64,000 nucleotides of DNA, taken from NCBI RefSeq assembly GCF_041737375.1, contig NZ_JBGSRV010000003.1, forward strand, positions 76,522 to 140,521. The letters run 5' to 3'. Shown one piece after another: positions 1,554 to 50,180 of the stretch. Numbering within the stretch: position 1 is the stretch's first letter; each line of letters begins with the position of its first letter. The notes under the pieces were generated by a model. That model was given only the letters and a program-made list of their open reading frames with translations, was not told the origin of the DNA and ran no database searches. Made by a program: the position numbers and the translations under genes. This DNA is from Vampirovibrio sp. (GTDB lineage: Bacteria > Cyanobacteriota > Vampirovibrionia > Vampirovibrionales > Vampirovibrionaceae).

Positions 1554-3713
<2,160 letters not shown>

Positions 3714-8412: not shown

Positions 8413-8473
8413 ACGGGTTTAAAAGGGATTAAAGCCGTTTAAAACCGGTAGGCACACCGAACTTTAAATTCAA

Positions 8474-8512
8474 CCCAAGCCGCTTCTCATCAAGCACCGG
8501 CTTGGGTTTTTT
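8474..8512 (+). terminator. Rho-independent terminator after secA
   Basis: cccaagccg / cggcttggg stem with a 15-nt loop followed by TTTTTT. Confidence 0.6.
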
Positions 8513-8653
8513 CCGTTTATTCGCGCGAGCGGCTTTGGGTCTTGGCGAAAGCTGAAAAAGCTAAAATTGTAAAGGTTTGTGAACACTTTAGGGCGCTAAG
8601 CTCAAAGGTTTTTTCGCAAATGCCGATAAGGCCTTATAGCAAGAGGACTTGGC

Positions 8654-9541
8654 ATGAACTTTTATAACAGCTATTTACAAGGGGTCAACCAGACCATTGG
8701 GGAGCATTCCCGTTATGCGCGCCAATTTCAGGCCGGTCAGGGAAAAACCGGCACTCAGAGCGGGGCCACTACAGCCACGCCCACCCCGGCTCCAGATCAA
8801 AACCCAGCCACCGACCCCACCCAGCTGATGAATTTATTGCTTACGCTGTTCCAGATGATGGGCGGAACGCAGGATACGGCCACCGGAACGACAGGCACCA
8901 CCACAGGAACCACTACCGCCACTACGCCGCCGCCCTATGTCCCCGGATTGACTAACCCGCCACCACCGGCTCAAAACCCGGCGGTTGCTTCCATTGAAAG
9001 CAAATTGAGCGCCAAGGCCAACGCCACCGACCCCAATAGTGCAGCCATCATCCTATCCCCGGCTGATGTTGCCTCGCTGCGGGCCGACTTGCAAAGCGGC
9101 AAATTTTCCGCGGCGGATTTGGGCGAAGCGCTGATGTATAAGCTGGATCAGGCCCCCGACAAAAACCGGGTGGCCATCGGCCAACTCATTCAGGCATTTA
9201 CCAACGCTGGAGAATTGAACATTTCGGCATTCCTGCAAAATGATTACCTGCTCAAGCTATCCCCGGCCCGACAGGAAACGCTCATGAACAGCATCCAGCA
9301 AGGTGGACTGGAACTGGAAAACGGCAAACCCAACGGGCGACTGATTGGCTTTATGCTGGACAACCTGAGCAAGCCCGGCGATCCGCAAAGCAAAGCCTTT
9401 ATTCAGCAGTTGCTGCAAAATTTACAAATCACTTACGCCAAGCATCCCCAATCTTCACAGGGAAAATTGTTGGCCCAATTGATGACACTGGGGGGAATAT
9501 CCGTGGGTGATGATAACGCGCTTATTTTTCAGAATGCTTAA
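8654..9541 (+). CDS. Hypothetical protein with a Thr/Gly/Pro-rich low-complexity segment
   Basis: AGAGGA RBS 6 nt upstream of the ATG. It contains a TGTTGTTTGTTTATTPPP-type tract. I do not recognise a domain. Confidence 0.5.
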   Translation: MNFYNSYLQGVNQTIGEHSRYARQFQAGQGKTGTQSGATTATPTPAPDQNPATDPTQLMNLLLTLFQMMGGTQDTATGTTGTTTGTTTATTPPPYVPGLTNPPPPAQNPAVASIESKLSAKANATDPNSAAIILSPADVASLRADLQSGKFSAADLGEALMYKLDQAPDKNRVAIGQLIQAFTNAGELNISAFLQNDYLLKLSPARQETLMNSIQQGGLELENGKPNGRLIGFMLDNLSKPGDPQSKAFIQQLLQNLQITYAKHPQSSQGKLLAQLMTLGGISVGDDNALIFQNA

Positions 9542-10205
9542 ATTTACGAATCCAGCTACTCACCAAGCTAGATGTAACATCGTGTTTTTTGGCCAATTTT
9601 CCGGGCTTGGTTTCGCCTTGCTGATAATCCTCTAATACATACTTGCGTTTCACAGCAAATTCCTTGCGGCGTTCCGAAAGGCTCCCTGATTTTTTCTTTG
9701 TGCCAGTTCTGACCCTTTCAGAGGAGGCTTCCGACAAGATGGAAGGTTCGCTTTCGAGTTCGGTAAGAGATTGAACCTCCTTTCTCGCTTTTAGCTGCCG
9801 GGATAATGGCGCATTGAAGTCTGTCAACGGCTCAATCTCGAAAATCGCAAAAGGATTCCACGACGGTTTCTGATGCCCGCTGACCGGGGGGGAATCCAAA
9901 GCGGGTAATGTAAAGGGGGGCTGATTGGGGAATTTCACCAAAGTCGGCCCGCTCAAATCTGGCAAACCCTTCAAAAACTGGCGGTCTTGCGGCGAGAAAA
10001 ACAACTTGTCCACTTCAGGGGATGAAGGCTGAGAATCGTAGAAATCCGATGCAACAGACTTTAGAAAAGAATCGTTCGATGCGGTGCGAGGCGGGGGAGA
10101 TGTTTCATGCGAGGTGACCAGCTGCTGCTTGCGTTTTGCTTCATCAGCGGCGGTATTTTTAAACCCAAGCGAGTGCCCAGTGGTAACCAGCGAATAGGGA
10201 TGCAT
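9522..10205 (-). CDS. Hypothetical Ser/Pro-rich protein with a C-terminal transposase-like HTH (IS3 OrfA / HTH_Tnp_1-like)
   Basis: Strong AAGGAG RBS before the internal ATG at 10205. The C-terminus 'RRKEFAVKRKYVLEDYQQGETKPGKLAKKHDVTSSLVSSWIRKF' resembles transposase N-terminal HTHs. Its 3' end overlaps the convergent gene by 20 bp. Confidence 0.45.
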   Translation of the reverse strand: MHPYSLVTTGHSLGFKNTAADEAKRKQQLVTSHETSPPPRTASNDSFLKSVASDFYDSQPSSPEVDKLFFSPQDRQFLKGLPDLSGPTLVKFPNQPPFTLPALDSPPVSGHQKPSWNPFAIFEIEPLTDFNAPLSRQLKARKEVQSLTELESEPSILSEASSERVRTGTKKKSGSLSERRKEFAVKRKYVLEDYQQGETKPGKLAKKHDVTSSLVSSWIRKFKHSEK

Positions 10206-10365
10206 CGACCATTCTCCTTTACAGCAAATACACGGGCTCGTGAGCCAAAACGGAATCATGCCATGGAAACCCGGATTATGAAATCCAGATTATTTTAGCG
10301 ATGATTCAAACTTTTTACTATAACAATAGTAATATTGTCAAATCCATGACCAACGCAAAACCGCA

Positions 10366-15824: not shown

Positions 15825-17321
15825 CTAATAACCGGTATAAGCGTTTCCGGGGCGATAGGGGCGGGCTTTTTTAAGCGGCTTGCGAGGCAACCGGCATTTT
15901 TGCATCACCGCATAGCGCAGGCAATCCATCACATCCTCGTACGGATGCTCCTGTAAGGGGGATTCCGAGCCGGATGGCCCGTAGCGGTATCCGCCCTCAA
16001 AGGCCTCAATCAGCTTTTCACATCCAAAATCCACCTGCAAAGCCGGACGGGGGCCAATCCATTCCGACAGCTTAACCCGCAGTAATTCCAACCCATCCTT
16101 GATGGATGACCTGTCAAAGAACGGAAACACCCCCATGCTATTCAGGATATCGATACTGGTTTGCAAGCTCTTGTCGGAGCGCTGAGCCCCCGCCGGATCG
16201 CAAATATCTTCCACCGGGACACTTCCGTAATTCACCTCGGTCAAATGGGTGACCCGTCGGGCGAAATCGGTGAGCAGTTCCTGCTTGCCTACCACTTCTC
16301 GCAGCACCAACAGCCGATCTTCGCTGTCAAAGGCCAAAAACAGGCACGAGGGGCAATGAAACCCAAAATCCCAGCTTCGAATCAGTTTGTGGGGCTTAAA
16401 CGCGGTAAAATCCCCTTTGTTGGCCTCGTTAAAATTACGAAACACCCGATCCTTCAAAGACAAGTGGTAGTTAATATCCAGCTCTCGGGCCACTTCATCT
16501 TCGCTCAGCCGTTTTTGCTGGTTGGCGTACCAGCCTTCATTGCGCAAGGGATGTTCCCGCCAGTGGATGCGTAACACCCGCACCTGCCCGGAAAATCGCA
16601 AATCGGCAAACCGGTTGTTCTTGCCATACGGGGTGCCTACCACAATGCGGCTGGGGGTAGACTGTCCGGCAGAGGCGTAAGCGGCGTCCTGCATGGGCCA
16701 AAAAGGGAACTCATCAAACAGAATGGCCTTGTAGCGCCCCCCTCGCCCAAAGTTCTCGTTGCTGCTTTCCCCGGTAATGGTGTTGCCGTTGGCCGGATTG
16801 AGCAAGCGCAGCAGGTTATCATGCACGTTGTCCTGAAACCCGGCTGGACGCATCCAGTGCGGTAACCAGGCCAGGTTGTAACGCAGTTTTTCCATCAGGG
16901 TAGACAGATCGCCCTTGCGATCCACCGCCTCCTGCTTGCGGGAACCCAAATGAAAATTGGCCCCGTCCCGAAACAGCCAGAAGTATTGAAAGGCCAAAAG
17001 CACCAGCCAGCTCAGGCCCATATCCCGGCTTTTTTCAATCAGCAGGTCTTCCCCCTTCTCAATGGCGGACACCAAATCCAGCAAGGCCGCTTCCTGAAAC
17101 GGGTAGGGCACAAAGGGCTGATGCGGCTGATCCAGCCGGGGGTCAAAAGTCCAGCAGAAATGCCGAAACCAGAAGCGGATATCCCGTTTGCACCAATGCA
17201 TCAACAAAGCCTGTAACTCGGGGTTCTCCTGCGCCGCCTGATACAAGCTCAGGCGGCGGGTTAACCAAGGGCGAGACGGCAAATCAGCGGCAGTATTTAT
17301 AGGGCTATTTGTATCACTCAT
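15825..17321 (-). CDS. Phage terminase large subunit-like protein (ATPase + RNase H-like nuclease)
   Basis: Deviant Walker A region (EKSRDMGLSW), Walker B (ILFDEFPFW), and acidic nuclease-domain motifs (WDFGFH, DICDPAG, EDVMDC). Length and domain order match Terminase_6-type TerL. Confidence 0.7.
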   Translation of the reverse strand: MSDTNSPINTAADLPSRPWLTRRLSLYQAAQENPELQALLMHWCKRDIRFWFRHFCWTFDPRLDQPHQPFVPYPFQEAALLDLVSAIEKGEDLLIEKSRDMGLSWLVLLAFQYFWLFRDGANFHLGSRKQEAVDRKGDLSTLMEKLRYNLAWLPHWMRPAGFQDNVHDNLLRLLNPANGNTITGESSNENFGRGGRYKAILFDEFPFWPMQDAAYASAGQSTPSRIVVGTPYGKNNRFADLRFSGQVRVLRIHWREHPLRNEGWYANQQKRLSEDEVARELDINYHLSLKDRVFRNFNEANKGDFTAFKPHKLIRSWDFGFHCPSCLFLAFDSEDRLLVLREVVGKQELLTDFARRVTHLTEVNYGSVPVEDICDPAGAQRSDKSLQTSIDILNSMGVFPFFDRSSIKDGLELLRVKLSEWIGPRPALQVDFGCEKLIEAFEGGYRYGPSGSESPLQEHPYEDVMDCLRYAVMQKCRLPRKPLKKARPYRPGNAYTGY

Positions 17322-17330
17322 GCCGGGCCT

Positions 17331-18077
17331 TTATATCCCCCCCATTAAGGCCAGGGCGATTTGAGAGCTGGTTCGCAAGGTACTTTCACGGTTCTGTCGG
17401 TTTTGTTCGGCCTGAAGGGCGGCGTTTTGATTGCTGACCTGCATGGCCAGATTGGCCCGTTGCACCGCCAAATCCGTGGCCCGCTGGGTTTCGTTCTGCA
17501 AAATACTGCTGCCATTGCTTTGCAAGCCTCGGGCCTGATTGTTCAAATCGGCCAGATAATTTTGAAACAGGGAAAACCGCCGCACCCGGCTGTCTTCATC
17601 GGCCCGATAAAGCTCTTCTCCCAGCAAGCCGGACTGCTTGTAGGCTTCCGATAACTGCCCCAGGCGGTTGTTTTCCAATTGCCCCAAAAAATGGGTGCCA
17701 AAGGTGGCGTTATAGGCGCCCCCAAACCGCTTGGCCAAGTTGGTGCGGGCTTTGGAGAGCTGATCGTTGGCGCTGCTATTAATACCGGCGGCTTGCAAAT
17801 CAAAAAAATCCTGACTGCGCTGATTGATGGCCTGCTGACGAACCGGGTCCGGCTGGTTCAGTTCTTTGGCCAAATTCTGAAGCCCCTTCAGGCTTTCTTC
17901 CACCGTTAAGCGGGTGGTGGGGGTCAAAAAGCTCTCAAAGCGTTGATCACTGCCTTTGGTGGTGGTCACATACCGATCGCCGGTCGGACTGTTAAATTCC
18001 ACCTTGGTAATGGCGGGTGGGGCCACGATTTTAACCACTTCCCGTTTGGGGGCTTTCTGCTTGCGTCCTAAAGACAT
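17331..18077 (-). CDS. Hypothetical Q/N-rich coiled-coil protein (candidate terminase small subunit / phage protein)
   Basis: AAGGAG RBS. Its stop lies 9 nt from the TerL start, indicating tight coupling. I do not recognise a domain. Confidence 0.5.
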   Translation of the reverse strand: MSLGRKQKAPKREVVKIVAPPAITKVEFNSPTGDRYVTTTKGSDQRFESFLTPTTRLTVEESLKGLQNLAKELNQPDPVRQQAINQRSQDFFDLQAAGINSSANDQLSKARTNLAKRFGGAYNATFGTHFLGQLENNRLGQLSEAYKQSGLLGEELYRADEDSRVRRFSLFQNYLADLNNQARGLQSNGSSILQNETQRATDLAVQRANLAMQVSNQNAALQAEQNRQNRESTLRTSSQIALALMGGI

Positions 18078-18142: not shown

Positions 18143-18769
18143 TTAGAGAGAAGATTGATGGAAAGCCTGCGGCCCGTCTGGCAAGGGCTGACGCTTTTGC
18201 ACCCCTCGCAGCAAACGGGGCAATAACCAGCCTTGGTAACGATTGGCGGATACACTGTAAATAGCCACGTCCCGCAAACAGCCACCCAGCTTGATATCGG
18301 CTTTAAACAGGGCTTCCCGCTGAAAACCCCACCGCAGGCAAAAGCCCTTGGCCCCGGCGTTATCCAGTTCAAACTCAGCTTTCAGCTTTAGCAAGGCCAA
18401 GGGGCCAAAGGCGGCCTGAAAAATAGGAAGCAACAGGCGTTCCACCGCCGATCGGGCCTCTTTGTTTTCACGAAAATGGGAATGGGTGGCCCCGTGCAAA
18501 AACGCATGACGACCGGGCTGAATATCAGAGAGGGCAATAATGGCCCAAACCTGATCCGTCTCATCGGCCAGCACCCAAAGCCAGGGCAGGCAAGCGGCGG
18601 TATTTTCCGATAAAAAGTGGATATCTTGCTGTAAGTTTCCACTTTGGCGATAATCATCCAGCAAAATGGGGTGATGCGTCTGGAGCAACGCCTCAATACC
18701 GGGCTGATAGACGGCCCATTCTTGCAGGCTGGAAACGTGGCAAACCCGAAGCATGCTTAAGGTTCCCAA
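18143..18769 (-). CDS. GNAT-family N-acetyltransferase-like protein
   Basis: RimJ/RimL-like fold features with a C-terminal 'GFxLRWGFQRE...AIYS' motif. The start is uncertain. Confidence 0.5.
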   Translation of the reverse strand: MGTLSMLRVCHVSSLQEWAVYQPGIEALLQTHHPILLDDYRQSGNLQQDIHFLSENTAACLPWLWVLADETDQVWAIIALSDIQPGRHAFLHGATHSHFRENKEARSAVERLLLPIFQAAFGPLALLKLKAEFELDNAGAKGFCLRWGFQREALFKADIKLGGCLRDVAIYSVSANRYQGWLLPRLLRGVQKRQPLPDGPQAFHQSSL

Positions 18770-23868: not shown

Positions 23869-24975
23869 ATGCGCTTGAGGGGATTTAAAAGGATTAACAC
23901 GGCCAAACCAAACGCCTCCCCTAAACTTGTAAGAAGGATTGGACGATTCACCTTGACCCCCTCAAGCTTACTGAACCCGCCCCAAACCGACCTGAAAGCA
24001 ACCGATCTCCCCACAAGACCGGAAAGCACTTTGGCGAGACATCCTTTTGAAAGTGCCCCTTTTCTGGAAAGCTGGTGGGAGCATTTGGCCCCCAAGTTTT
24101 GTGGCGGCGAAGGTGAGGGCCAACTGTTTAAAACCACCAAACCCGTGCTAAAAGGTCTGGTTCCGCTTCAGTTTTTACGACAAGCCGGATGGAACGGGGT
24201 GTATTACCAAAGTCTGAATCAGGCCGATTGGGAAAGCTTTCGCACCCTAAGCGACCGCACCCGCTGGGACTGCTTTGAAGTGCGCTGGAACCAGACCGTC
24301 ACCGATTCGCAGGTGTTTAACCCCTACCTGCGTTTGGGGTGTAAAGTGCTGCACACCCCGGTATCCGGCAGCCCGGTTATTGAGCTGCAAAATGGATGGG
24401 AAGCCTACTGGCAAGCCAAGGGTAGTCATCACCGGCAAAATATAAACCGGCAATTCAAAAAAGCCGCCCATCTACAACCGGAACTCATCTTTTTTGAAGG
24501 AGAGCAAGGGCTGGCTGAATTTTTCGCGCGTTTTTTCCCGGCCCATCAAGCCTATTGGCAGTCCAAGGGGGAAGGATCTTATTTTGAGGATCCCCGAGAA
24601 CGGGCTTTTATCATTAGTTGGGCCAGCAAACTACAACAATCAGGACAACTTTGCCTGAGCGGCCTTTTGCTGGGCGGACAAATCACCAACCTGAGCTTCA
24701 ATGTCATCCACCGCAATGTGCTTTATGCCTTGCTCACAATCAATACCGGGGTTCATCATCAAGCAGTCCCCGGCATCATGGCCCTGCATCAACTGACTCA
24801 ACATGCTTGCGCTCAAGGCATGGAAACCATCGATCTGGGGCCGGGAGAATCCACTTTCAAGAAAAAATTCGCCACCCGTGTGGATCCCTGTTTTCAAACC
24901 CTGATTATTAACCCAAAATCAGTAGCGGGGCAACTGTACGGGGCGTTTAAATCCGGCAAATCGGTTTCTGTTTAA
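23869..24975 (+). CDS. GNAT-fold acetyltransferase (Acetyltransf_6 / CelD / FemAB-like)
   Basis: C-terminal half resembles BioF2/CelD-type GNAT domains (ALLTINTG..., IDLGPGESTFKKKF). The start is uncertain. Confidence 0.5.
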   Translation: MRLRGFKRINTAKPNASPKLVRRIGRFTLTPSSLLNPPQTDLKATDLPTRPESTLARHPFESAPFLESWWEHLAPKFCGGEGEGQLFKTTKPVLKGLVPLQFLRQAGWNGVYYQSLNQADWESFRTLSDRTRWDCFEVRWNQTVTDSQVFNPYLRLGCKVLHTPVSGSPVIELQNGWEAYWQAKGSHHRQNINRQFKKAAHLQPELIFFEGEQGLAEFFARFFPAHQAYWQSKGEGSYFEDPRERAFIISWASKLQQSGQLCLSGLLLGGQITNLSFNVIHRNVLYALLTINTGVHHQAVPGIMALHQLTQHACAQGMETIDLGPGESTFKKKFATRVDPCFQTLIINPKSVAGQLYGAFKSGKSVSV

Positions 24976-25576: not shown

Positions 25577-28240
25577 CTACAACAGGCTCTGGGCGTCAAT
25601 GTCCAGAATAAAATTCAAGTCCTCCGGCAAGCGGGCTTCCATGGCCTTGCGGTAAAAGTCAATAATCAGGCGATGTCCGGCAGGGCCAGCCCCATTTTTA
25701 ACCAGCAAATGCAAACGAAATTTATTTTGAATGCGAGGCAGCACACAAGGCGCTGGCCCCATCAGGATCATGCGTGAATCCACATCGGCTGAGGATTTCA
25801 TGAGTTCCCGCAAGTGCAAAGTAGCAGCCTGAATGAATTGCTGGGCCTTTTTCTCGTTCTCGCAACTCACAATAAACCGAAAAATTTGAGAATACGGCGG
25901 AAAGTTGCATTGCTCTCGCTGCACAATTTCTTCGTTGTAAAAGCTGGGGTAGTCCTGATTTTTGGAATGGGTTAACACCATATGTTGAGTTTGCACCGAT
26001 TGAATAATCACCCGTCCCGGCTTTTGGCCCCGACCGGCCCGACCGGCCACCTGGGTTAACAACTGAAAGCCCCGCTCGGATGATTTGTAATCCGGCAGGC
26101 AAAAGGCGGAATCGGCACTGACTACCCCCACCAGCGTTACATTGGCCACATCCAGCCCCTTGGCCACAATTTGGGTACCAATTAAAATATCGGCTTCTCC
26201 GGCGGCAAAGGTTTCAAAAATTTCCACATAGGCGTTCTTACGCTGCAACACGTCACTGTCAATTCGCAACACACGGGCCTCGGGAAATTTTTTAATGACC
26301 TCATCCTCAATACGCTGAGTACCCACCCCACTGTGGCTCAGCTCCATGCTGGCGCACACCGGACAATAGGCCGGACGCTCGCTTTCGTATCCGCAATAAT
26401 GGCAACACACCTGATTGCGGGTGCGATGAAAAGTAACCGCCACATCGCAATTGGGACACTGAAACACATGATCGCAAACCGTGCATTGAATGGTGGTATA
26501 AAACCCCCGCCGGTTCAGCAGAATAATAGACTGCTCGCCCGCTTGCAGATTGAGGTTGAGTTCCTCAATCAAGGAGCGGGACAACTGGCCCTGATGGCCC
26601 TGGGCACGCTCCTGCTTCATATCCACAATGCGAACTTCGGCCAGTTGGCTATTGCCAAAACGCTCTGGCAGGTGCAAAATACGCTGATTTTGATGGGCCT
26701 GATAAAAGGTGCTGATTTCAGGAGTAGCGCTGCCCAGCACCACTTTGGCCCCGGTACGCCGAGCCAGCTCCAAAGCCAAAGTTTTGGCGTTGTAGCGAGG
26801 GGCGGGGGAATCCTGCTTGTAGCTGTTCTCATGCTCCTCATCAATTAAAATTAAAGCCAAATCCTTTAAGGGCGCCCAAATAGCGGAGCGGGCCCCGATC
26901 AAAATTTTCAACTCCCCGTTGCACAGTTTTTGCCAGGTGTCGGCCTTTTCCCCATCCGATAAATTACTGTGCCACAAGGCAATGTTTTCTGAGCCAAAGT
27001 GGTTAATAAAGCGGCGGGCAATCTGAGAGGTCAACGCGATTTCCGGCACCATGATCAGCACCGCCTTGCCCCGCTCCAGGGCGTGCCGGGTCATGCTCAT
27101 GTACACTTCCGTTTTACCGGAGCCGGTAATGCCGTACAGCAGGTAGGGGTGTTCGCTATCGCCATTGACCACCGTATCCATGGCCCGCTGCTGGTATTGA
27201 GAGAGGGTAAACTGGGTGCGGGCCACCAGTTTTTGAAACAGGGCCAAGGGGTCCCGATGCTCCGCCACCTCGGTAATGCTGAGCAGGCCAGCGGCCTCCA
27301 GCTTTTTAAGGGTAGGCGGGGTGGTGCCTAACACGTCCACCAGCTCCCGCAAGGGCAAGCCTTCTGGCAGCGATTTTAAGTGGTTGATAATGTCCTGCTG
27401 GCGGGTGGACAGCACCGCATTGTTCAGGGCCTCCACATTCAGCGTTACCCGTTTGTAGGTTTTGGCCCGTGTTTTGGCGCTTAGCTCGGTTTCCACCACC
27501 ACAATGTCCAGCTTGCGTAAGCGGGCCAGCAACTGGTTCATGGTTTTCTGGGGCATTCTTAAATGAGAGGCCAGATACTTGGGCGAGTATCCCTTGGGGT
27601 TTTTGCCCTCGCACAACTCCTGATAGGAAGCGGCGTTTTTATACAAAAAATCAATCAGTTGCAAGGCTTTGCGGGCATGGGCATCCTGAATGCGGGCAAG
27701 GATGGAAGGCTCCGTAAAGTTGGGCCCCTGAAACACCAGTTTTTTAGGCTTTTGCACCAGATTGGCAGGCAAGGCACAGGCCAGCACCTGGGCAATGGGG
27801 GTGGCATAATAATCGGCCACCCAACCCATAAAATCGTAGTACGGGGCATCAAACAGAGGTGTTTCATCCAGAATATCAGACAGCTCCTTGAGCTTGTAAG
27901 TGCCTTGGTAGGTGTCGCTGAGGGCCACGATAAACCCGGTTAAATCCTGCTGCGCCCCAAAAGAAACCAGCACGGGTTGTCCTACCTGCGCCACTTCCCG
28001 AAATTCTTCCGGCACCTGATAGGTAAACACCTGACTTTGCAGGCTTTTGGTGGTCATGTTCACCAAAACCTCAGCATAACGAGGCAAGGGGCTTGAGCCC
28101 GCTTGTGGTGTGGATTGCGGTTGCAGGACAGTATCCCAGAGCGACAGATTCATCACTCTATTATCCGCAACGCAGGCCCCTTTTGTCATTTTTTGCAGCC
28201 AGCCTTTAGGATTCTTTGGATTACGCCTTACTGTGAACAA
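25577..28240 (-). CDS. priA: Primosomal protein N' (replication-restart helicase PriA) with an inserted winged-helix-like segment
   Basis: Walker A (GITGSGKTEVY), DEEH box, and the 4-Cys Zn module (CTVCDHVFQCPNCD...CCHYCGY...CPVC). The first codon of the track ORF is TTG. The true start is probably an internal ATG near 28150-28190. Confidence 0.9.
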   Translation of the reverse strand: MFTVRRNPKNPKGWLQKMTKGACVADNRVMNLSLWDTVLQPQSTPQAGSSPLPRYAEVLVNMTTKSLQSQVFTYQVPEEFREVAQVGQPVLVSFGAQQDLTGFIVALSDTYQGTYKLKELSDILDETPLFDAPYYDFMGWVADYYATPIAQVLACALPANLVQKPKKLVFQGPNFTEPSILARIQDAHARKALQLIDFLYKNAASYQELCEGKNPKGYSPKYLASHLRMPQKTMNQLLARLRKLDIVVVETELSAKTRAKTYKRVTLNVEALNNAVLSTRQQDIINHLKSLPEGLPLRELVDVLGTTPPTLKKLEAAGLLSITEVAEHRDPLALFQKLVARTQFTLSQYQQRAMDTVVNGDSEHPYLLYGITGSGKTEVYMSMTRHALERGKAVLIMVPEIALTSQIARRFINHFGSENIALWHSNLSDGEKADTWQKLCNGELKILIGARSAIWAPLKDLALILIDEEHENSYKQDSPAPRYNAKTLALELARRTGAKVVLGSATPEISTFYQAHQNQRILHLPERFGNSQLAEVRIVDMKQERAQGHQGQLSRSLIEELNLNLQAGEQSIILLNRRGFYTTIQCTVCDHVFQCPNCDVAVTFHRTRNQVCCHYCGYESERPAYCPVCASMELSHSGVGTQRIEDEVIKKFPEARVLRIDSDVLQRKNAYVEIFETFAAGEADILIGTQIVAKGLDVANVTLVGVVSADSAFCLPDYKSSERGFQLLTQVAGRAGRGQKPGRVIIQSVQTQHMVLTHSKNQDYPSFYNEEIVQREQCNFPPYSQIFRFIVSCENEKKAQQFIQAATLHLRELMKSSADVDSRMILMGPAPCVLPRIQNKFRLHLLVKNGAGPAGHRLIIDFYRKAMEARLPEDLNFILDIDAQSLL

Positions 28241-28393
28241 AACTCCGCCTTGCCTGAGGGCTTGTAAAAATGGAGCGGTTGATATAGTTTTTACGTTTGG
28301 AATTAGTGGGTTTTTTTATCAAGATTATTTTTTAATCAACCTCAGTGAACGCCCTGTAGGGCCAATCATCATGAGAAGGGTAGTGCTGTTGCT

Positions 28394-30244
28394 ATGAAAC
28401 TCATTTCCAGTCCTTTCCGGGACGCAGGCGCCCAAAAACGATCCATATCCACCCGGCCGGAACCCAACATCCGGCCTCGCGTTTTGCCCGCCTCAGCCGA
28501 TGGTTTTGAACGGCACAGCCCCTTGTTTGGCATGACCCCGCATAAACGCAAATTTTCTGAAGTGGCAACCGTTGAGGACCAGGTGGTACCGGAAATAATA
28601 TTCACACCCACCCCCGTCCCCGCCCCAACCAACCGCAGCCGATTTGAGGATGTGGCCGTTTCTAATCAGGAATTCAGGGCATGGCAAGTAATCGCCGACA
28701 ATAGCAACGCCTTACACGAGGCGCTGAGCCGAGGCAATCCCAAGCAAGCGGACCCGCAACTGTTTAACTATCTGGCCTATCGCATGCTGGTGGCCGGGGC
28801 TAGTCCTCATCAGCCCAATGCTCAAGGATTAACCCCCATGGCCCATGCGGCGGCCCACGGCAATGGGGTGGGCATGAGCCTGCTTGAAGATCAAAAAGCC
28901 TCAATTACCCCTCAAGAAGCAAGCGAGGGATTGATTCATGCCTCTATTAGCGGGTATCCGGGCGTGATTCAAAAATTATTGAAAAAAATACCCCTCGGCC
29001 AACTGCCTCATAACGCCATTACCTTAAAAAACCCCTTGCATCTGGCCGCTCAAAACGGTCGGGCGGAAGTGGTGGAAACCCTGCTGACCCGGCCCGATCT
29101 GGATGTAGGCGCCACCGACTGGCGTCGTAAAAACGCCTTGAACCTTGCCGCAGGCACTGGCAACGCCAAAACCGTCTCTGTGCTGCTTAATCAGCCCAAC
29201 AGCAATGTCGCTCAACTGGATTATCTGGGGTGTAACCACTTGCACGAATCCGCCGCTCACGGAAACGCCGATAGTGCCAAAGCGCTGCTCAAAGGCTCTT
29301 TGCTAAACCCCAACCAGAGAAACTGGCTGGGCAAAACCCCCTTAATGATTGCCGCTCAAAAGGGGCATCTGGATTTTGTGCACACCTTCCTGAATCAGCC
29401 CGAGGTGGAGGTCAACCATCGGGACATCGCAGGAAACAGCGCTTTAATTCTGGCCTTAACAAACAGTCACCCCAAAGTGGCGGAAGCCCTGATCCAACAT
29501 CCCGGCACCCAGATCAATCTGGCGGGTAGCAGCTCAGAAAGCCCCTTATATAAAGCGGTGATTAACAACGATGAAGCCAGCGTCCGGTTGCTCAGCAAGC
29601 AACCCGGCATCCATATCAATCAGCCCAACTGGCTGGGCGTTAGCCCTTTAATGGCCGCCATTAGTAAAGGGCAAAAACCAATGGTGGATATTTTATTAAA
29701 GCATCCCCAAATTTTTATTCATCAACAAGATGAAGATGGGGACACCGCCTTAAGTTATGCCGCCGTTCACAACGACATGCACGCCCTGAAACAACTATTG
29801 GCCATGCCCAAAATTCAGATCAACCAGTATAACTTTCATGGGCAAACCCCATTAATGCTGGCCATCATGTATAACAAGACCGAAGTGGCTCAAGCCTTGC
29901 TGGCCCAGGAAAACATCAACATCAATCACCAGGACGTTAGTGGAAACACGGCCCTGCACATGGCGGTGGAGGAAAACAACCGGGACGTGGTGAAATTATT
30001 ACTGACCCACCCGGACATTGACGTGAATTTGAGCAATGTTTTTCAATCCACCCCCTTATCGCTAGCGGTGATTATGCGGCATGCCGCCGTGGTTAAACTG
30101 TTGCTGGAGAAGCCCCAAACCAATATCCATCAAGCCGATATGTGGGGAAAACCCCCAATTGAATACGCCCAACTGCGAAAAATGACCCATATTATCAGCC
30201 TGTTAAAAGCCCGAATGGCAGAAGACGCCAAAAACCAGCACTAA
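28394..30244 (+). CDS. Ankyrin-repeat protein (at least 12 ANK repeats)
   Basis: Reiterated 33-aa ANK consensus (G.TPLH.AA..G...VV..LL..P...VN..D). 616 aa with no other recognisable domain. Confidence 0.85.
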   Translation: MKLISSPFRDAGAQKRSISTRPEPNIRPRVLPASADGFERHSPLFGMTPHKRKFSEVATVEDQVVPEIIFTPTPVPAPTNRSRFEDVAVSNQEFRAWQVIADNSNALHEALSRGNPKQADPQLFNYLAYRMLVAGASPHQPNAQGLTPMAHAAAHGNGVGMSLLEDQKASITPQEASEGLIHASISGYPGVIQKLLKKIPLGQLPHNAITLKNPLHLAAQNGRAEVVETLLTRPDLDVGATDWRRKNALNLAAGTGNAKTVSVLLNQPNSNVAQLDYLGCNHLHESAAHGNADSAKALLKGSLLNPNQRNWLGKTPLMIAAQKGHLDFVHTFLNQPEVEVNHRDIAGNSALILALTNSHPKVAEALIQHPGTQINLAGSSSESPLYKAVINNDEASVRLLSKQPGIHINQPNWLGVSPLMAAISKGQKPMVDILLKHPQIFIHQQDEDGDTALSYAAVHNDMHALKQLLAMPKIQINQYNFHGQTPLMLAIMYNKTEVAQALLAQENININHQDVSGNTALHMAVEENNRDVVKLLLTHPDIDVNLSNVFQSTPLSLAVIMRHAAVVKLLLEKPQTNIHQADMWGKPPIEYAQLRKMTHIISLLKARMAEDAKNQH

Positions 30245-37226: not shown

Positions 37227-37901
37227 ATGGCCATCAGCTCCATTAGTAGCAATATCGCCCGAGAGGTTTTTCATACTTCTTTGGCTGGCGTGGCCGCCAA
37301 AGGTGTGGGCAGCTCCTTTCGGGTGTGGGATGATCGCAACGCCCCCAGCCCCATCCAGAAAAATACCATTAAACGAGAAGCCGCCACCTTGGCAATGGTT
37401 TCCGCCTTTACGGCAGGCATTGATTTGGCCGGACAAAAAATCACCCAGAAAGCGGCCCAAATACCAGCCCTCAAAACCACACTGGAAAAAGCCGCCCATC
37501 ATCGCATCCTGATTAAAGCCGTCCCCGTATCGCTGGGCATTTTAATGGCGGAATTACTGAGCCGCAAACTGGCCCCCCGCAATATCTGGAGCGAAGATGG
37601 CCAGTTGAACGAAAGCGTTCTGGACTCCGATTCAGATTCCGATGATGAGGATATTGATGCGCTGGACAAGGCGGACCACAAAGCGCCCGACACCTCCGCC
37701 GAGCAGCCCTCTGGCACCCGCAATAAAAAAACAGCTCACGCCCATGTCCATCCCAAGCCACTGCCCCTCACCTTTGCGCAAGCGGGCGCATCCCAGCAGT
37801 ATGCCCCTTTTCCCTCATTTATGCCGTTTCCGGCCTCCTCCCTGTCCAATCCTTTTCAGCAAATGGCATTCACCCGGCTGCCCTCATTCACTGGTCTGTA
37901 A
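37227..37901 (+). CDS. Hypothetical protein with an acidic DSDSDSDDEDID tract
   Basis: 224-aa ORF with a weak RBS. The overlapping 37027 ORF looks non-coding (W/P-rich). Confidence 0.35.
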   Translation: MAISSISSNIAREVFHTSLAGVAAKGVGSSFRVWDDRNAPSPIQKNTIKREAATLAMVSAFTAGIDLAGQKITQKAAQIPALKTTLEKAAHHRILIKAVPVSLGILMAELLSRKLAPRNIWSEDGQLNESVLDSDSDSDDEDIDALDKADHKAPDTSAEQPSGTRNKKTAHAHVHPKPLPLTFAQAGASQQYAPFPSFMPFPASSLSNPFQQMAFTRLPSFTGL

Positions 37902-40454: not shown

Positions 40455-40724
40455 ATGAGAGTACAACCCATTAACGCCCGCATGCCAGTGCATCAGGCAT
40501 CACCTCTGCAACCCACCCCCCAAAGCCAACGGGTTGCCCCTACTTCATCACTAAATCCCATTACCCAACCCGAAACACTCGGACTTCAAAAACTTGGAAA
40601 AACAGACGTGCCATTTGGCCTGACCACCATTTCGTTTGGCCAGCTCAACCAAGCGCCCAAAGTTGCCTCCGCCTTCACCCGGCCCAATCCCAGTTTGGGC
40701 CATCGGCTGGATTATTACGCCTAA
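40455..40724 (+). CDS. Hypothetical small protein
   Basis: AAGAGGA RBS 6 nt upstream of the ATG. 89 aa, Pro/Gln-rich. Its 3' end abuts the convergent caspase gene. Confidence 0.35.
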   Translation: MRVQPINARMPVHQASPLQPTPQSQRVAPTSSLNPITQPETLGLQKLGKTDVPFGLTTISFGQLNQAPKVASAFTRPNPSLGHRLDYYA

Positions 40725-42124
40725 GGTGTTATGCCTGTAGCCAAAGGAGCCACTGGCTGCACAGGGGTCGAGGATAAACGCACATGCGGCAACGGATTGG
40801 CGCAATGGCGGGCAAAGGAGAACGCCTGAGCGATGCGCTCGGTGTGAGATAAGTCTGTCTGGGTGCGGGCATGCTGGTTTTCCCGGCGGGCGGTAGGGTC
40901 GCTTTCCAGGGCGTAGCTGGTGTACATGGACACTTCCTTCAGGTTCAAATCGGGGCGGGCCATAAATTGCACCAGATACTTGGTGTAAAGCCCCTCGTTT
41001 CGCTCCTGAATAGCGGGCATTTTGGGCCGGGAAGCGTATTCAATCCAGGTGTTGGCCAAACCGGGACCGGGTTCGGTTTCCCACTGCTTTAAGGCCGGTT
41101 TTCCAGAGCGGAAGGCGGTGCCTCCGTTCATCAGGGGGGTGCGGCAGGCATCCAGAAAAATCATGTTAAAGTAACTGCCCGCACCCTTTAATTCTCTCAG
41201 CAGGTAATCCACCGACACCGAATTTTCCTCAAACCCCGGTTGCATACTGCCGCTGTATTCCACGGGAATCAGGTAATTATTGCCGTTTACCGAGCCGCCA
41301 TGGCCGGAATAATAAACCATGGAAACCGCGCCCGGATTTTCCCGCAGCTTGCTGGTAAACTGGCTGACCCGAGCCTTCATGGCGGGCCCGCTCAAGTTAT
41401 GGCCCTGAATCACATAAAATCCCTGTCGGCGCAGCAGGCTGGAAATGCTGTTGGCATCCTGAATGGGGCCGCCCTGTAAATCGTTTTCCCCGCCCACATA
41501 GTCATCGTTGGCCAGCACCAGCGCCACACGGGGCGGGCAAAAAGGAAGCCCCAGACTGGTAGGACTCTTTAGCCTCTGTAGCTGAATGACCCGGCCCTTA
41601 TCCTGTAGGGATTGGGCATGTAAGCCCATATCGGAGTACAATTCTGCCCGGTTCTCATAGGCGGCGCTGTTCATGGGGTTAATGCGAACCGCTTGCCCAT
41701 AATCGTTCAGGGCCAGTTGATAATCCTGTGCGGCCACTTCCGGCTGGCCCATTTTTTTGGCGAAATCGCCCAGATACACCCACAGGTTTCCCCGGTTCAA
41801 GTAGGCGTTATAAAAATGGGGATTCATGGCAATGGCGGTACTGTAATCGGCAATGGCCCCCACATAATCTTTTTGGCCCGCCTTGGCCACCCCCCGTTTG
41901 TTCAAAACATGAATATCGGTGGGGTTCAGTTGCAGGTAAGCGTTAAAGGCCTGAATGGCCTGTCCAAACTGGCTGGCCTTGTATAAATTTTCACCCAAAT
42001 CAAAATAATAACGAGACGGGCCACTTTGAGCGGCCTGAGGCGCAAAACGATCGAAAGACGGAGACGGGAAATACAGAGACGAGGGGGCCGCATAAACGGG
42101 CGCCCCGTACCGCCCCAGCACCAT
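40721..42124 (-). CDS. TPR-repeat / caspase-domain (peptidase C14, orthocaspase) protein
   Basis: N-terminal TPR repeats. The C14 domain carries the His (YYSGHGG) and Cys (FLDACR) dyad and an 'ALVLANDDY' start. Confidence 0.85.
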   Translation of the reverse strand: MVLGRYGAPVYAAPSSLYFPSPSFDRFAPQAAQSGPSRYYFDLGENLYKASQFGQAIQAFNAYLQLNPTDIHVLNKRGVAKAGQKDYVGAIADYSTAIAMNPHFYNAYLNRGNLWVYLGDFAKKMGQPEVAAQDYQLALNDYGQAVRINPMNSAAYENRAELYSDMGLHAQSLQDKGRVIQLQRLKSPTSLGLPFCPPRVALVLANDDYVGGENDLQGGPIQDANSISSLLRRQGFYVIQGHNLSGPAMKARVSQFTSKLRENPGAVSMVYYSGHGGSVNGNNYLIPVEYSGSMQPGFEENSVSVDYLLRELKGAGSYFNMIFLDACRTPLMNGGTAFRSGKPALKQWETEPGPGLANTWIEYASRPKMPAIQERNEGLYTKYLVQFMARPDLNLKEVSMYTSYALESDPTARRENQHARTQTDLSHTERIAQAFSFARHCANPLPHVRLSSTPVQPVAPLATGITP

Positions 42125-48377: not shown

Positions 48378-50180
48378 TTACCCGTGCTGTTCCCGTTCCC
48401 AGTCCCAGGCTTCTTCGGCGGCATTCAATTCAAACTGATGGCGCATGGCAGGGCTAATGGCCAGCAACAGTTCATTAAACACCATGCGGGCTGATTTATC
48501 GGCAAACGCAATCACCGCCCCTTCATGCTCGGAGCGTTTCTCCAGCCACTGGGCAATCAGGCGGGATTCTTCATAGAGAGATTTGGGAATGGGCTGACCC
48601 GCAGCGGCCGTGTGCGAGTCCAGCGCATCGAGCGCCTGCTGAATCCAGAGGATCATGGCATCCCAGTCCAGCAGAACAGGATCAATGGTTTTCCACTGAT
48701 GGGGCTGCCCCTGCAACACGCTAAGCAGGCGGAAGCATCCGGGCTCTTGCGCGGGCAGCACAATCAGGCAATGGCGCAGGGTGACCGCCTGAATGAGCCG
48801 ATAACTGGTTTGCCGAAAGCGCCCCAATAATTCCAGTTGTTCCTGAATCAGGGCGGCCTTTTCAAAGCGCAACGCCTCCACATAAGCCTCTCGCTTGGCG
48901 GTCAGTCCATCCAGGGCGTTGCAGGGCTGCTGGGCCAAAAAGCGCAGGAAATCGGCCACCCGCTCCTGATAGTCAGCCTCATTGATTTTTCCGGCACAGG
49001 GGCCACTACACAACCCCAACTGATACTGCATGCACGGGCTGGCCCGATGCGCCTCAAACTTGCGATCCGAGCAATCCCGCAACTGAAAACTACGGTTCAA
49101 TACTTCCAGCCTGTTTTTTAGAGAAGACAGCCCGTGAAAGGGGCCAAAATAGGCCAGTTCAGGATTGTCGCTATCCTCGCTCAGGCTTAGGCGGGGAAAC
49201 CGGGCGTTGACGGACACGGCCATAAACACCATTTGCTGATAATCTTTAACTTTTTGATTAAAAAACGGCTGATGCTGTTTAATGAGGCGAGATTCCAGAA
49301 TCAGGGCCTCCAGCTCTGAGCCCACCACCATCACCTCAATCTGGGTCACCTGGCGCATCATCACCGCAATTTTGGAGGGCAAACGGGATTGCTTCTGAAA
49401 ATAGCTTCTCAGTCGCACTTTCAAATTTTTGGCCTTACCCACATATAAAATTTCGCCCATCCGGTTTTTCATTAAATACACACCGGGCTGGGCCGGGTAA
49501 TCCTTCAAGCGATTGCGATCAAAGGGCAACTCATTTCGGGTGCGATACACCCGCACCGGCACACCGGGACAAAAATCCAGCAGTTGGGCAAATTGGGTAA
49601 CCCCTTGCTTGCCCAGCAAATCCAGCAGCTTTAAAAACACTTTGGCCCCAATAATGGCGGCATTTTCAGTGCGAGCCAGCCCATCGGTTTCCAGGCCCCA
49701 GTGGGCGGCCCAATGGTTCAGCCCATGGCGGGGCAAATCGGGCAATAATTTTTGGGCCAGATTGAGCAGAAAAAACTGGCGATCCCGTGGCTGAGTGAGC
49801 TTGAAATAGCGGTGAACGGCGTTGGTTGTTCCGGGCGGATTGGCCCACAAAATCACATCCCGCTCCACAAAGGCGGCCAGCTCCGGCAAAACGGATTCCA
49901 GCGGCGGGCATTCCCGCAAGCTTTGGGTATAAATGCCGGTTTTGCGGGTAAATTCCTCAGGCAAGGCATGGGGTGGGCTGAATCGCATATGCAACGTTTC
50001 GGCGATGCGAGCGTCTCGAATTTTAACGCAAGCCAGTTCCACCACGTCCGAGTTGGACTGAAGATCGTTGACCGTTTTTACGCAGATCAACGTAAACCGA
50101 ATATCGGACAAAGGGGCTATGGGGGGCATAAAACTCTCTGGGGTGGACAGCCGTAAGCGGAAACGCCCGCCTGAAACCAT
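48378..50180 (-). CDS. UvrC-homologue (Cho-like) GIY-YIG endonuclease with an N-terminal ~190-aa extension
   Basis: GIY-YIG (GVYLMKN...ILYVGKAKNLKVRLRSYF) and the UvrC Cys-rich module (CSDRK...CMQYQLGLCSGPCAG). The N-terminal region is only weakly DnaQ-like and lacks the canonical DxE / HNxxFD residues. A start at ATG 50129 is possible. Confidence 0.7.
   Translation of the reverse strand: MVSGGRFRLRLSTPESFMPPIAPLSDIRFTLICVKTVNDLQSNSDVVELACVKIRDARIAETLHMRFSPPHALPEEFTRKTGIYTQSLRECPPLESVLPELAAFVERDVILWANPPGTTNAVHRYFKLTQPRDRQFFLLNLAQKLLPDLPRHGLNHWAAHWGLETDGLARTENAAIIGAKVFLKLLDLLGKQGVTQFAQLLDFCPGVPVRVYRTRNELPFDRNRLKDYPAQPGVYLMKNRMGEILYVGKAKNLKVRLRSYFQKQSRLPSKIAVMMRQVTQIEVMVVGSELEALILESRLIKQHQPFFNQKVKDYQQMVFMAVSVNARFPRLSLSEDSDNPELAYFGPFHGLSSLKNRLEVLNRSFQLRDCSDRKFEAHRASPCMQYQLGLCSGPCAGKINEADYQERVADFLRFLAQQPCNALDGLTAKREAYVEALRFEKAALIQEQLELLGRFRQTSYRLIQAVTLRHCLIVLPAQEPGCFRLLSVLQGQPHQWKTIDPVLLDWDAMILWIQQALDALDSHTAAAGQPIPKSLYEESRLIAQWLEKRSEHEGAVIAFADKSARMVFNELLLAISPAMRHQFELNAAEEAWDWEREQHG

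Follow-up and report, generated by a model that had tools for sequence, protein, structure and literature searches.

An ankyrin-repeat (ANK) gene encoded beside priA in a Vampirovibrio genome is restricted to a small clade of this genus, in which its position next to priA is conserved, and no other gene of its syntenic block evolves as fast. The explanation that we tentatively favour, at somewhat less than an even chance, is that it encodes a lineage-specific effector which binds proteins of the prey and for which only a candidate delivery route can be named. Because it is clade-confined and evolves far faster than its neighbours, the protein is a reasonable but unproven candidate for action against eukaryotic prey. 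The gene was analysed within a 64-kb stretch of DNA, referred to below as the window, and the coordinates of the relevant features are collected in Table 1.

Table 1. Features of the ankyrin-repeat gene and its flank, in window coordinates
Feature	Residues	Coordinates	Strand	Description
priA		25577..28189	-	Divergent neighbour; NCBIfam priA TIGR00595, 6e-177
Intergenic box CTTGTAA-17 nt-TAGTTT		28261..28290	+	Faces the ANK gene
ANK gene		28394..30244	+	Full CDS including stop, ATG start, 616 aa (ORF list; Pfam; orthologues at the locus)
N-terminal region	1-83	28394..28642	+	Disordered, Pro/Ser-rich, mildly basic; pLDDT <50
Short motif (FERHSPLFGMTPHKRK)	38-53	28505..28552	+	[FL]E..xP.FG(M).p.KR, from the four-way orthologue alignment
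N-terminal cap and repeats R1-R3	84-207	28643..29014	+	Three degenerate ANK-like helix pairs lengthening the solenoid
Canonical repeats R4-R15	208-615	29015..30238	+	Twelve repeats in an unbroken 34-residue register

Architecture of the ankyrin protein

The protein is a solenoid of about 15 ankyrin repeats (residues 91-616) carried on a disordered N-terminal arm of 83 residues. As the initial annotation had it, the gene is a 616-aa ORF divergent from priA. No rival long ORF covers it on either strand, the sole overlap being an 87-aa ORF at 28369..28632 (-), and an identical protein is carried by Logan contig SRR28170467_10643. Pfam Ank_2 (PF12796) matched eight stretches of the protein (E = 1.6e-78, 259.8 bits against a cut-off of 27.3), Ank (PF00023) scored 168 bits against 21.1, and Ank_3, Ank_4 and Ank_5 likewise exceeded their gathering scores. 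No non-ANK Pfam family rose above its cut-off and no catalytic domain was detected, in agreement with the first description of the protein. BLOSUM autocorrelation over residues 96-616 was positive only at lags 34, 68 and 102 (+0.56 to +0.61), and lay between -0.7 and -1.1 at all other lags tested; these peaks and the Pfam matches together establish that the array is real and strictly periodic.

Structure prediction with AlphaFold2 (AF2), one of the checks originally proposed for this protein, gave a single continuous helix-pair ANK solenoid over residues 91-616 (mean pLDDT 85.5, pTM 0.75). Both the Pfam score and the solenoid fold (AF2, Foldseek) place the 616-aa protein in the ankyrin-repeat superfamily. 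From residue 214 to residue 615 of the model, a helix pair recurs every 34 residues with pLDDT above 90. The period is 34 rather than 33 because of one additional residue in the helix 2-hairpin loop, and this variant is common to about half of the best database matches. The "at least 12" repeats counted in the initial annotation correspond to the canonical series R4-R15, with the consensus D..G.TPL..A.......V..LL..P.I.VN.., and are preceded by three degenerate repeats (R1-R3, residues 106-207) that follow a capping helix. AF2 helices at residues 91-198 have pLDDT values of 78-92, and the cap has a family-specific, helical consensus, FRAWQ.I..NSNALHEAL.RG.P...LFNYL. No DNA-level tandem repeat was found in the gene, which is single-copy within the window.

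The N-terminal ~90 residues had been described as non-ANK and basic. Residues 1-83 are in addition disordered, and the basicity is mild, residues 1-95 having a pI of 9.96 and a net charge of +3 (14 K/R, 11 D/E, 12 P). The motif at residues 38-53 forms a conserved island within this otherwise divergent N-terminus when the four orthologues are aligned, and it is possibly a docking or targeting element.

Locus, organism and distribution

priA served as the synteny anchor and the rate yardstick of this analysis, and no evidence ties it functionally to the ANK gene. Its true start is likely the ATG at 28189 and not the TTG at 28240, since its N-terminus, MTKGACVADNRVMNLSLW, aligns with that of V. 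chlorellavorus, MTNGAELAHNKTMNLPLW. The ANK gene is monocistronic, lying divergent from priA and convergent with a gene for an amino-acid permease, with no functionally suggestive neighbour or operon partner. The intergenic box is among the few stretches of the non-coding spacer that are conserved in all four genomes (4/4). It is weak in comparison with the sigma-70 consensus and was not called by the consensus scan; it is promoter-like and may serve as the promoter of the ANK gene. The consensus promoter and terminator scan of the ANK locus returned nothing convincing.

The annotated genes of the window are of housekeeping or generic metabolic and regulatory types, and eight long ORFs are without a Pfam match. 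GC content (z = -0.6) and GC3 (z = -1.1) of the ANK gene are normal, and its codon usage is somewhat deviant, ranking second among 28 genes. The gene occupies a stable, core-genome position that belongs to no plasmid or island, which counts against an effector. Recent horizontal transfer, from the alga or elsewhere, is not supported, given the normal GC and GC3 and the low identity of non-orthologous matches (at most ~30%), and a prophage or phage origin was rejected, as megablast of window positions 20-40 kb against phage records gave no match.

The premise that the bacterium is free-living proved wrong: the genome is that of a Vampirovibrio, with a PriA 87% identical to those of V. chlorellavorus NCIMB 11383 and Vc_AZ_2. 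V. chlorellavorus is an obligate epibiotic predator of the green alga Chlorella (PMC4451040). A large ANK array therefore sits in the expected kind of organism, a relative of a eukaryote-preying species, and the abundance of ANK proteins in bacteria tracks a host-associated lifestyle (Jernigan and Bordenstein 2014, cited in PMC9868349).

Ubiquitous orthologues in free-living relatives, in conserved synteny, would, according to the initial annotation, point to a housekeeping role. An ANK orthologue adjoins priA in four close genomes only, namely that of the window and three others (L002, L003 and L004), with a PriA identity of 85% or more. Among more distant Vampirovibrionales (PriA 68-77%), eight assemblies (L005-L009, L013 and L014 among them) had no ANK gene near priA in the available flank of up to 10 kb, an absence that applies to the priA locus only. 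A PriA-anchored scan contributed two relatives lacking the ANK gene, and a JGI metagenome scan with cap-specific peptide patterns recovered no relative.

Among 1.84 billion representatives searched with phmmer, one protein, P0001, was the only single-stretch full-length match in the best 150, a list dominated by giant ANK proteins (2000-6500 aa) that match in several stretches; the search rules out further orthologues only above ~277 bits, and the set evidently contained no V. chlorellavorus proteins. With the full 616 residues as query, a word-indexed homology search likewise gave one orthologue-grade match, P0001, the rest being generic ANK proteins of at most 28% identity. Two other word-indexed searches, with the N-terminal 213 residues and with the V. 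chlorellavorus orthologue (E <= 1e-60), were empty and missed even P0001, an effect of saturated candidate lists or of limits of the index, and are not counted as absence. When a cap HMM was run against the 281 best ANK matches, only P0001 matched (116.8 bits), all others scoring 9.4 bits or less. The best generic matches of the protein are mostly unnamed metagenome proteins.

Evolutionary rate and selection

Between species, the ANK protein is 40-43% identical, in comparison with 57-90% for 11 syntenic neighbours. Between the two V. chlorellavorus strains, dN is 0.178 for the ANK gene versus 0.026 for priA, and dN/dS is 0.185 versus 0.057; the amino-acid substitution rate is about seven times that of PriA. 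Residues 1-83 are the fastest-evolving part of the protein, with 20-28% identity between species and a dN/dS of 0.51 between the two strains. Residues 84-139 retain 39-57% identity across species, more than any other stretch in two of the three species pairs.

The repeats have kept both their number and their order, and the gene is under purifying selection. No region or position class reaches a dN/dS of 1, and in the repeat-by-repeat comparison with V. chlorellavorus the diagonal averages 41.9% identity against 26.3% off the diagonal, with 10 of 12 rows scoring best on the diagonal. As dN/dS stays below 1 throughout and the repeats are orthologous one to one, the gene encodes a working protein and not decaying sequence. 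Recent repeat amplification was rejected on the same one-to-one orthology across species and on the lack of DNA tandem repeats. Positive selection left no signal in any region or position class, which likewise counts against an effector.

Change between species is concentrated at the canonical target-contacting positions of the repeat (2, 3, 5, 13, 14 and 34, which are randomised in designed ANK binders). Identity between species falls from 0.66 at framework positions to 0.32 at other positions, and is lowest, 0.20, at target-contacting positions (permutation p = 0.005). Within V. chlorellavorus, by contrast, the target-contacting positions have a dN of 0.095 versus 0.205 for other non-framework positions. 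Contact positions that are divergent between species and conserved within one form the pattern expected for species-specific targets, although fast change at surface positions is also expected from relaxed constraint on a repeat scaffold, which counts against an effector.

Export signals

The search for secretion signals that had been recommended for this protein, conducted by hydropathy, revealed no Sec or Tat signal peptide and no transmembrane segment. The highest Kyte-Doolittle 19-residue mean (1.51) falls within an ANK helix, residues 1-40 are hydrophilic, and there is no twin-arginine motif with a hydrophobic core after it. The label "cytoplasmic" given to the protein is an inference from this missing Sec/Tat signal. 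At the same time, translocated ANK effectors usually lack an enzyme domain, a signal peptide and a membrane segment, as does this protein.

The signal of type IV secretion system (T4SS) substrates is reportedly C-terminal, unstructured, net-positive and Arg-rich. A basic cluster is present in the C-terminal ~30 residues of all four orthologues (4/4), as RKRR in both V. chlorellavorus strains, KRKR in P0001 and LRK..K.R in the window protein. In the AF2 model of the window protein the C-terminus falls inside the last capping helix (598-615), leaving no unstructured tail, and the net charge of the last 30 residues is only +2, so that the argument for a T4SS signal is weakest for this protein. 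No secretion-system genes, T4SS included, were found within the window.

Proposed function and alternatives

In the mechanism that we tentatively propose, the ANK protein would be made without a Sec signal, delivered during epibiotic attack on Chlorella, and would then bind prey proteins; its partner would thus be a prey protein, and the ANK protein itself would leave the bacterium. For its exit a single candidate route can be named, the VirB/D4-type type IV system proposed in the literature for V. chlorellavorus. A T-type VirB/D4 conjugative T4SS was reported in strain NCIMB 11383 and proposed to inject effector proteins (PMC4451040), a model that is itself a genomic prediction. The more specific proposal that the solenoid is injected into Chlorella, possibly via VirB/D4, and represents the first identifiable trans-kingdom effector of the cyanobacteria-related genus Vampirovibrio is, in our estimate, rather unlikely. 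Were it so, delivery or localisation could fall to the conserved N-terminal cap or motif, the KRKR/RKRR clusters could also act as nuclear-localisation signals, and the concave surface, specific to each species, would bind a protein of the alga, such that the divergence of the gene contributes to prey range. The initial annotation had offered a host-directed effector or a scaffold; distribution and rate place the protein on the accessory side, and its effector role is that of a candidate only.

The strongest alternative, doubtful in our view but of real weight, is that the solenoid stays in the Vampirovibrio cytoplasm as an intrabacterial scaffold or adaptor, the product of a vertically inherited, clade-specific "domestic" gene, organising or regulating proteins of the bacterium itself, such as parts of the attachment and secretion apparatus or stored hydrolases. 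Such a role is consistent with the absence of a secretion signal of a recognised type and of T4SS genes from the window, with the stable chromosomal position between core genes in four genomes, with purifying selection and a fixed repeat number, and with the native GC content, and a conserved bacterial partner could bind at the conserved cap (84-139). Against it stands the statistical link between large ANK arrays and a eukaryote-associated lifestyle (PMC9868349). Moreover, a slowly co-evolving partner in the same cell is unlikely to leave the ANK gene the fastest-evolving in its block, the canonical binding positions are the least conserved class between species, and neither a suggestive neighbour nor an operon partner accompanies the gene.

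Bd3460, an ankyrin protein of Bdellovibrio, reportedly blocks the predator's own cell-wall hydrolases. A comparable self-protection or inhibitor protein, which would keep a lytic enzyme of Vampirovibrio sequestered until it is delivered, is improbable here. V. chlorellavorus is predicted to deploy many hydrolytic enzymes (PMC4451040), and ANK repeats are well suited to enzyme inhibition. However, protection from wall-active enzymes is needed in the periplasm and the protein has no signal peptide; the flanking genes are priA and the amino-acid permease gene, with no adjacent or co-oriented hydrolase gene; and, with 616 aa and ~15 repeats, the protein is far larger than small ANK immunity proteins. 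The features that characterise the Bd3460 type, periplasmic targeting and genetic linkage to the inhibited hydrolase, are both lacking in the ANK protein.

Some anti-phage defence proteins do carry ANK repeats. A component of an anti-phage defence system is nevertheless very improbable here, and membership of the MzaA and PDC-M72A systems was rejected, because the PADLOC matches (PDC-M72A, 1.3e-36; Ankyrin, 4.1e-31; MzaA, 6.5e-08) and the NCBIfam MzaA match (102.9 bits against a cut-off of 800) cover the ANK repeats only, the protein has no sigma-factor, nuclease, ATPase or other effector domain, and the window holds no defence or partner genes nearby and no phage-related DNA.

Relation to known ankyrin proteins

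Anaplasma AnkA and Ehrlichia p200 are VirB/D4-translocated ankyrin effectors of the Anaplasmataceae, large proteins in which ANK repeats make up most of the chain and which have neither a Sec signal nor an enzyme domain; their producers exploit eukaryotic cells. The window protein resembles them in its ANK-rich make-up, and the VirB/D4 class has also been reported for V. chlorellavorus (PMC4451040). It shows no sequence relationship to these effectors beyond the generic ANK repeat, however, and differs in being half their size, with a uniform 34-residue repeat, its own N-terminal cap and a translocation signal that is only putative. Its producer is an extracellular epibiotic predator of an alga, whereas the Anaplasmataceae are intracellular pathogens of animals.

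Among the Dot/Icm effectors of Legionella and Coxiella, AnkG/AnkZ/LegA7 gave the best NCBIfam match (3e-43); AnkH, AnkX, AnkY and AnkC were also matched, and AnkX is also among the PDB sequence matches. The shared logic is that of eukaryote-like repeat proteins directed against a protist host. Scores fell well short of the Dot/Icm equivalogs NF043019-NF043029, with 148.2 bits against 500 for AnkG/LegA7 and 20-90 bits against 450-1400 for the others (for instance 90 against 600 and 82 against 1400), and the matches span the repeats only. Dot/Icm is furthermore a type IVB secretion system, and the window protein is without a FIC, F-box or other added domain.

By structure and by PDB sequence, the window protein is best matched by long ANK solenoids of eukaryotes, namely the 24-repeat membrane-binding domain of ankyrin-R/ankyrin-B, the latrotoxins, NOMPC and TRPA1. 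Foldseek matched 8cs9_A with E 1.5e-19 and TM 0.65 over 510 columns and 4rlv with TM 0.66, and alpha-latrotoxin was matched by sequence at 3.8e-50. By analogy, the window protein would share with them a long, continuously stacked superhelical array whose inner groove binds partners. Identity is 19-29%, and the eukaryotic proteins combine 33-residue repeats with ZU5/UPA/death, channel or toxin domains, whereas the window protein is ANK-only with a period of 34.

The ANK proteins of Wolbachia, its phage WO and sponge symbionts are likewise ANK-only, fast-evolving and lineage-specific, and occur in eukaryote-associated bacteria. Those of sponge symbionts modulate phagocytosis by amoebae (Nguyen et al. 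2014, cited in PMC9868349). Eleven of the 13 phage records that match the window protein are Wolbachia phage WO ANK genes, at no more than 30% identity and over the repeats only. The window gene is chromosomal and core-embedded, whereas the phage WO ANK genes are prophage-borne.

Implications

To our knowledge, no predator of the cyanobacterial lineage other than V. chlorellavorus has been cultured. Its published injection model names only hydrolases as candidates for the conjugation-type T4SS (PMC4451040), and no paper linking Vampirovibrio with an ankyrin protein was found in the literature searched. A clade-specific, fast-evolving ANK gene with a species-specific surface provides this model with a concrete, testable molecule. 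Entry into the alga would make the protein a possible marker of prey specificity, whereas without such entry it would simply join the uncharacterised ANK proteins of bacteria.

Architecture of the ankyrin-repeat protein

The gene divergent from priA has its start at the first ATG in frame, and its product belongs to the ankyrin-repeat (ANK) superfamily by score and by fold. Pfam detected Ank_2 in eight stretches (1.6e-78) together with Ank, Ank_3, Ank_4 and Ank_5, and no non-ankyrin family exceeded its cut-off. Self-comparison of residues 96-616 gave positive values at lags of 34, 68 and 102 residues and at none of the other lags tested, and residues 208-615 comprised twelve repeats in a 34-residue register with no insertions or deletions (consensus D..G.TPL..A.......V..LL..P.I.VN..), preceded by three degenerate repeats at residues 106-207. 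This period is a common ANK variant, present in about half of the best database matches, and the repeats displayed no similarity to one another when compared as DNA. An AlphaFold2 model built from a 16-sequence alignment (mean pLDDT 85.5, pTM 0.75) placed residues 91-616 in a single uninterrupted helix-pair stack and left residues 1-83 unstructured (pLDDT < 50). The nearest solved structures were long eukaryotic ANK solenoids, including ankyrin-1 and ankyrin-B (TM 0.65-0.66, about 510 columns), with latrotoxins, NOMPC and TRPA1 also among them.

Proline is abundant in the N-terminal 95 residues, which are slightly basic (pI 9.96, net charge +3), and the hydropathy profile contained no hydrophobic signal or membrane segment. 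Periodicity, Pfam, AlphaFold2 and N-terminal composition therefore confirmed every element of the initial annotation's description: a protein of 616 residues made almost wholly of ankyrin repeats, at least 12 of them consecutive, no catalytic or secretion domain and a basic, if mildly so, non-ANK N-terminus. The orthologue alignment revealed a short motif, [FL]E..xP.FGM.p.KR (residues 38-53), kept within the otherwise divergent disordered arm. Basic residues cluster towards the C-terminus in every orthologue (RKRR, KRKR; LRK..K.R in the window protein). In the window protein, however, the chain stops within the final helix: it has no flexible tail, and its last 30 residues bear a net charge of just +2. 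Its own marks are a family-specific N-terminal cap (residues 84-139), the disordered arm in which a single short motif is conserved, and the twelve indel-free 34-residue repeats.

Genomic context and distribution

Window PriA shares 87% identity with its counterparts in Vampirovibrio chlorellavorus NCIMB 11383 and Vc_AZ_2 and 68-77% with those in other Vampirovibrionales assemblies. The priA start is likely the ATG at 28189, judging from the conserved N-terminus (MTKGACVADNRVMNLSLW in the window, MTNGAELAHNKTMNLPLW in V. chlorellavorus) and DNA conservation to that point, which would give a divergent intergenic region of 204 bp. This spacer is poorly conserved apart from one promoter-like box facing the ANK gene, CTTG(T/C)A(A/T)-17 nt-TA(G/T)TTT, which is kept in all four genomes that carry the gene and matches the sigma-70 consensus at 7/12 positions; a promoter scan made no call.

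Features of the window and orthologous loci
Feature	Location	Strand	Remark
ANK gene	28394..30244	+	616 aa
priA, mechanical ORF	25577..28240	-	starts at TTG 28240
Conserved box	28261..28290	+	faces ANK gene
ANK orthologue, V. chlorellavorus NCIMB 11383	L003 (its priA locus) 7826..9748		640 aa
ANK orthologue, V. chlorellavorus Vc_AZ_2			649 aa
ANK orthologue P0001	ENA metagenome contig (L002), 405 kb		621 aa; its PriA 85% identical
GNAT-family (Acetyltransf_6) gene	23869..24975	+	between GHL10 and bolA
Low-complexity protein	L014 (priA locus of a soil-metagenome relative) 1992..2954	+	320 aa, Gln/Pro/Met-rich; PriA 73% identical
TPR + Peptidase_C14 protein	40721..42124	-	467 aa; TPR 38-174, Peptidase_C14 199-411
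Exonuclease-nuclease fusion	48378..50180	-	600 aa; RNase_T-type 3'-5' exonuclease + GIY-YIG
ORFs without Pfam match	8654..9541	+	
	9522..10259	-	
	15825..17321	-	
	17331..18077	-	
	18143..18769	-	
	37227..37901	+	
	51102..51953	-	
	53517..54890	-	

An orthologue occupies the same site, divergent from priA, in the window genome and three others, and the window protein occurs identically on a Logan contig. The block shared with V. chlorellavorus is fully collinear (CoaE, Vut_1, PhoU, PHO4, DedA, permease, ANK, PriA, BolA, GHL10, DUF952, L25). The site of the GNAT-family gene is a variable spot in this otherwise collinear block: neither V. chlorellavorus nor L002 has a counterpart of the gene at the syntenic locus, and L002 holds four other genes there (a 273-aa ORF, DNA_alkylation, DCC1-like and MIP).

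In the eight distant assemblies (PriA 68-77%), the ANK gene was not beside priA within the flank inspected, which was limited because several contigs are short; gyrB, the rib operon or other genes take its place, and tblastn with the ANK protein found no match at any of these priA loci, to which the absence refers. The initial annotation had proposed orthologue distribution as a check, and the outcome falls on the accessory side. In the soil-metagenome relative, a low-complexity protein upstream of priA stands where the ANK gene would be. Another locus, L006 (DATNPJ010000020.1, a GTDB representative labelled 'Coleofasciculaceae cyanobacterium'), encodes a PriA that shares 68% identity with that of the window and has synteny like that of Vampirovibrionales, its rib operon lying upstream of priA just as it does in L008, the priA locus of another distant relative; this suggests that the contig is mislabelled or mis-binned.

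An exhaustive search of 1.84 billion representatives, a set without V. chlorellavorus proteins, returned P0001 as the sole single-stretch full-length match among the top 150 matches listed; orthologues less than about 35% identical would be masked by generic ANK matches. P0001 was likewise the sole match to a cap HMM among the best 281 ANK hits, and cap-specific peptide patterns matched nothing in JGI metagenomes. Two word-indexed searches missed even P0001 and are uninformative on absence.

Genes annotated in the window belong to ordinary chromosomal types (ATP synthase, SecA, the rib operon, PriA, transporters, CoaE, two-component systems, photolyase, HtpG and CinA), and no secretion-system genes, T4SS included, were found in the 64-kb annotation. 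GC and GC3 of the ANK gene are typical of the window, and its codon usage ranks second in deviance among 28 genes. PhiMa05-like jumbo-phage or prophage regions with ribosomal-protein genes are debated in Vampirovibrio genomes including Vc_AZ_2 (ISME J 2026; PMC13157829, PMC13623530); megablast of window 20-40 kb matched no phage record. The protein that joins TPR repeats to a caspase-family domain adds a further eukaryote-like architecture to this predator genome. No Pfam family matched eight of the window's ORFs (208-498 aa) at E <= 1e-5; three of these follow one another at 15.8-18.8 kb and could make up an uncharacterised operon.

Sequence divergence and constraint

The ANK protein is 43% identical to its V. 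chlorellavorus counterpart (eleven syntenic neighbours, 57-90%) and 40% to that of L002 (neighbours, 50-89%), making it the fastest-evolving gene of the block. Between the two V. chlorellavorus strains, ANK identity is 73% (dN 0.178, dN/dS 0.185), compared with 96% for PriA (0.026, 0.057) and 91% for the permease (0.054, 0.078). ANK dN/dS is below 1 in all regions (disordered arm 0.51, residues 84-207 0.10, repeats 0.15), indicating at the sequence level that the gene is constrained despite its fast evolution. Repeat number and order are kept between the window and V. chlorellavorus (diagonal identity 41.9%, off-diagonal 26.3%), the positional counterpart being best in 10/12 rows. Residues 84-139 (FRAWQ.I..NSNALHEAL.RG.P...LFNYL) rank with the best-conserved stretches: here the window protein is 52-57% identical to the other two lineages, and P0001 is 39% identical to its V. 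chlorellavorus orthologue.

Natural and designed ANK binders touch ligands at repeat positions 2, 3, 5, 13, 14 and last, which we take, following the designed-ANK library scheme, to be the ligand-contacting positions here. Between-species identity was 0.20 at these six positions (permutation p = 0.005), 0.66 at framework and 0.32 at other positions, whereas within V. chlorellavorus dN was 0.095 at the six and 0.205 at other non-framework positions. These opposite patterns, from a small sample of three lineages and one intraspecific pair, point to a putative binding face that is conserved within species and divergent between them.

Proposed function

The ANK protein can only be a protein-binding module. 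The initial annotation set its effector-or-scaffold question against a free-living bacterium, a premise that does not apply because V. chlorellavorus lives as an obligate epibiotic predator of Chlorella (PMC4451040). We tentatively consider that the protein is aimed at prey components, which fits better than a domestic scaffold: the bacterium that makes it survives by attacking eukaryotic prey, the gene is confined to the known predator's clade, it is the fastest-evolving gene nearby yet fixed in architecture, and change is greatest at the predicted ligand-contacting positions. It would then bind components of the eukaryotic prey, and the sole candidate delivery route would be the T-type VirB/D4 conjugative T4SS through which, the V. 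chlorellavorus genome paper proposes, the alga is injected with DNA and effector proteins (PMC4451040). Ankyrin proteins go unmentioned in that paper, and our literature search found none connecting Vampirovibrio with an ankyrin protein. Delivery is the weak link: despite the C-terminal basic cluster seen in every orthologue, the window protein has no flexible C-terminal tail, its terminal charge is low and the window holds no T4SS genes.

An intrabacterial scaffold would accord with the core-genome position, the purifying selection and the lack of any export signal, and we regard it as the main rival, somewhat less likely than a prey target. The Bdellovibrio ankyrin protein Bd3460 reportedly blocks the predator's own cell-wall hydrolases; similar self-protection is improbable here, as the expected signal peptide and hydrolase linkage are both missing. 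A role as a defence-system component fails on model scores and gene context and is highly improbable. This upholds the initial annotation's interpretation in part, favouring its accessory, host-related side, and the effector role itself is unproven.

Anaplasmataceae have VirB/D4-translocated ANK effectors; in logic these come closest to the Vampirovibrio protein, together with ankyrin proteins from Wolbachia, phage WO and sponge symbionts. It has only the generic repeat in common with them, at <= 30% identity. Curated Legionella Dot/Icm Ank effector families were ruled out (best score 148 bits, cut-off 500). The protein is not a new kind of system, and an ankyrin protein in a predator of algae would not surprise a specialist; the gene provides a specific candidate for the proposed injection model of Vampirovibrio.
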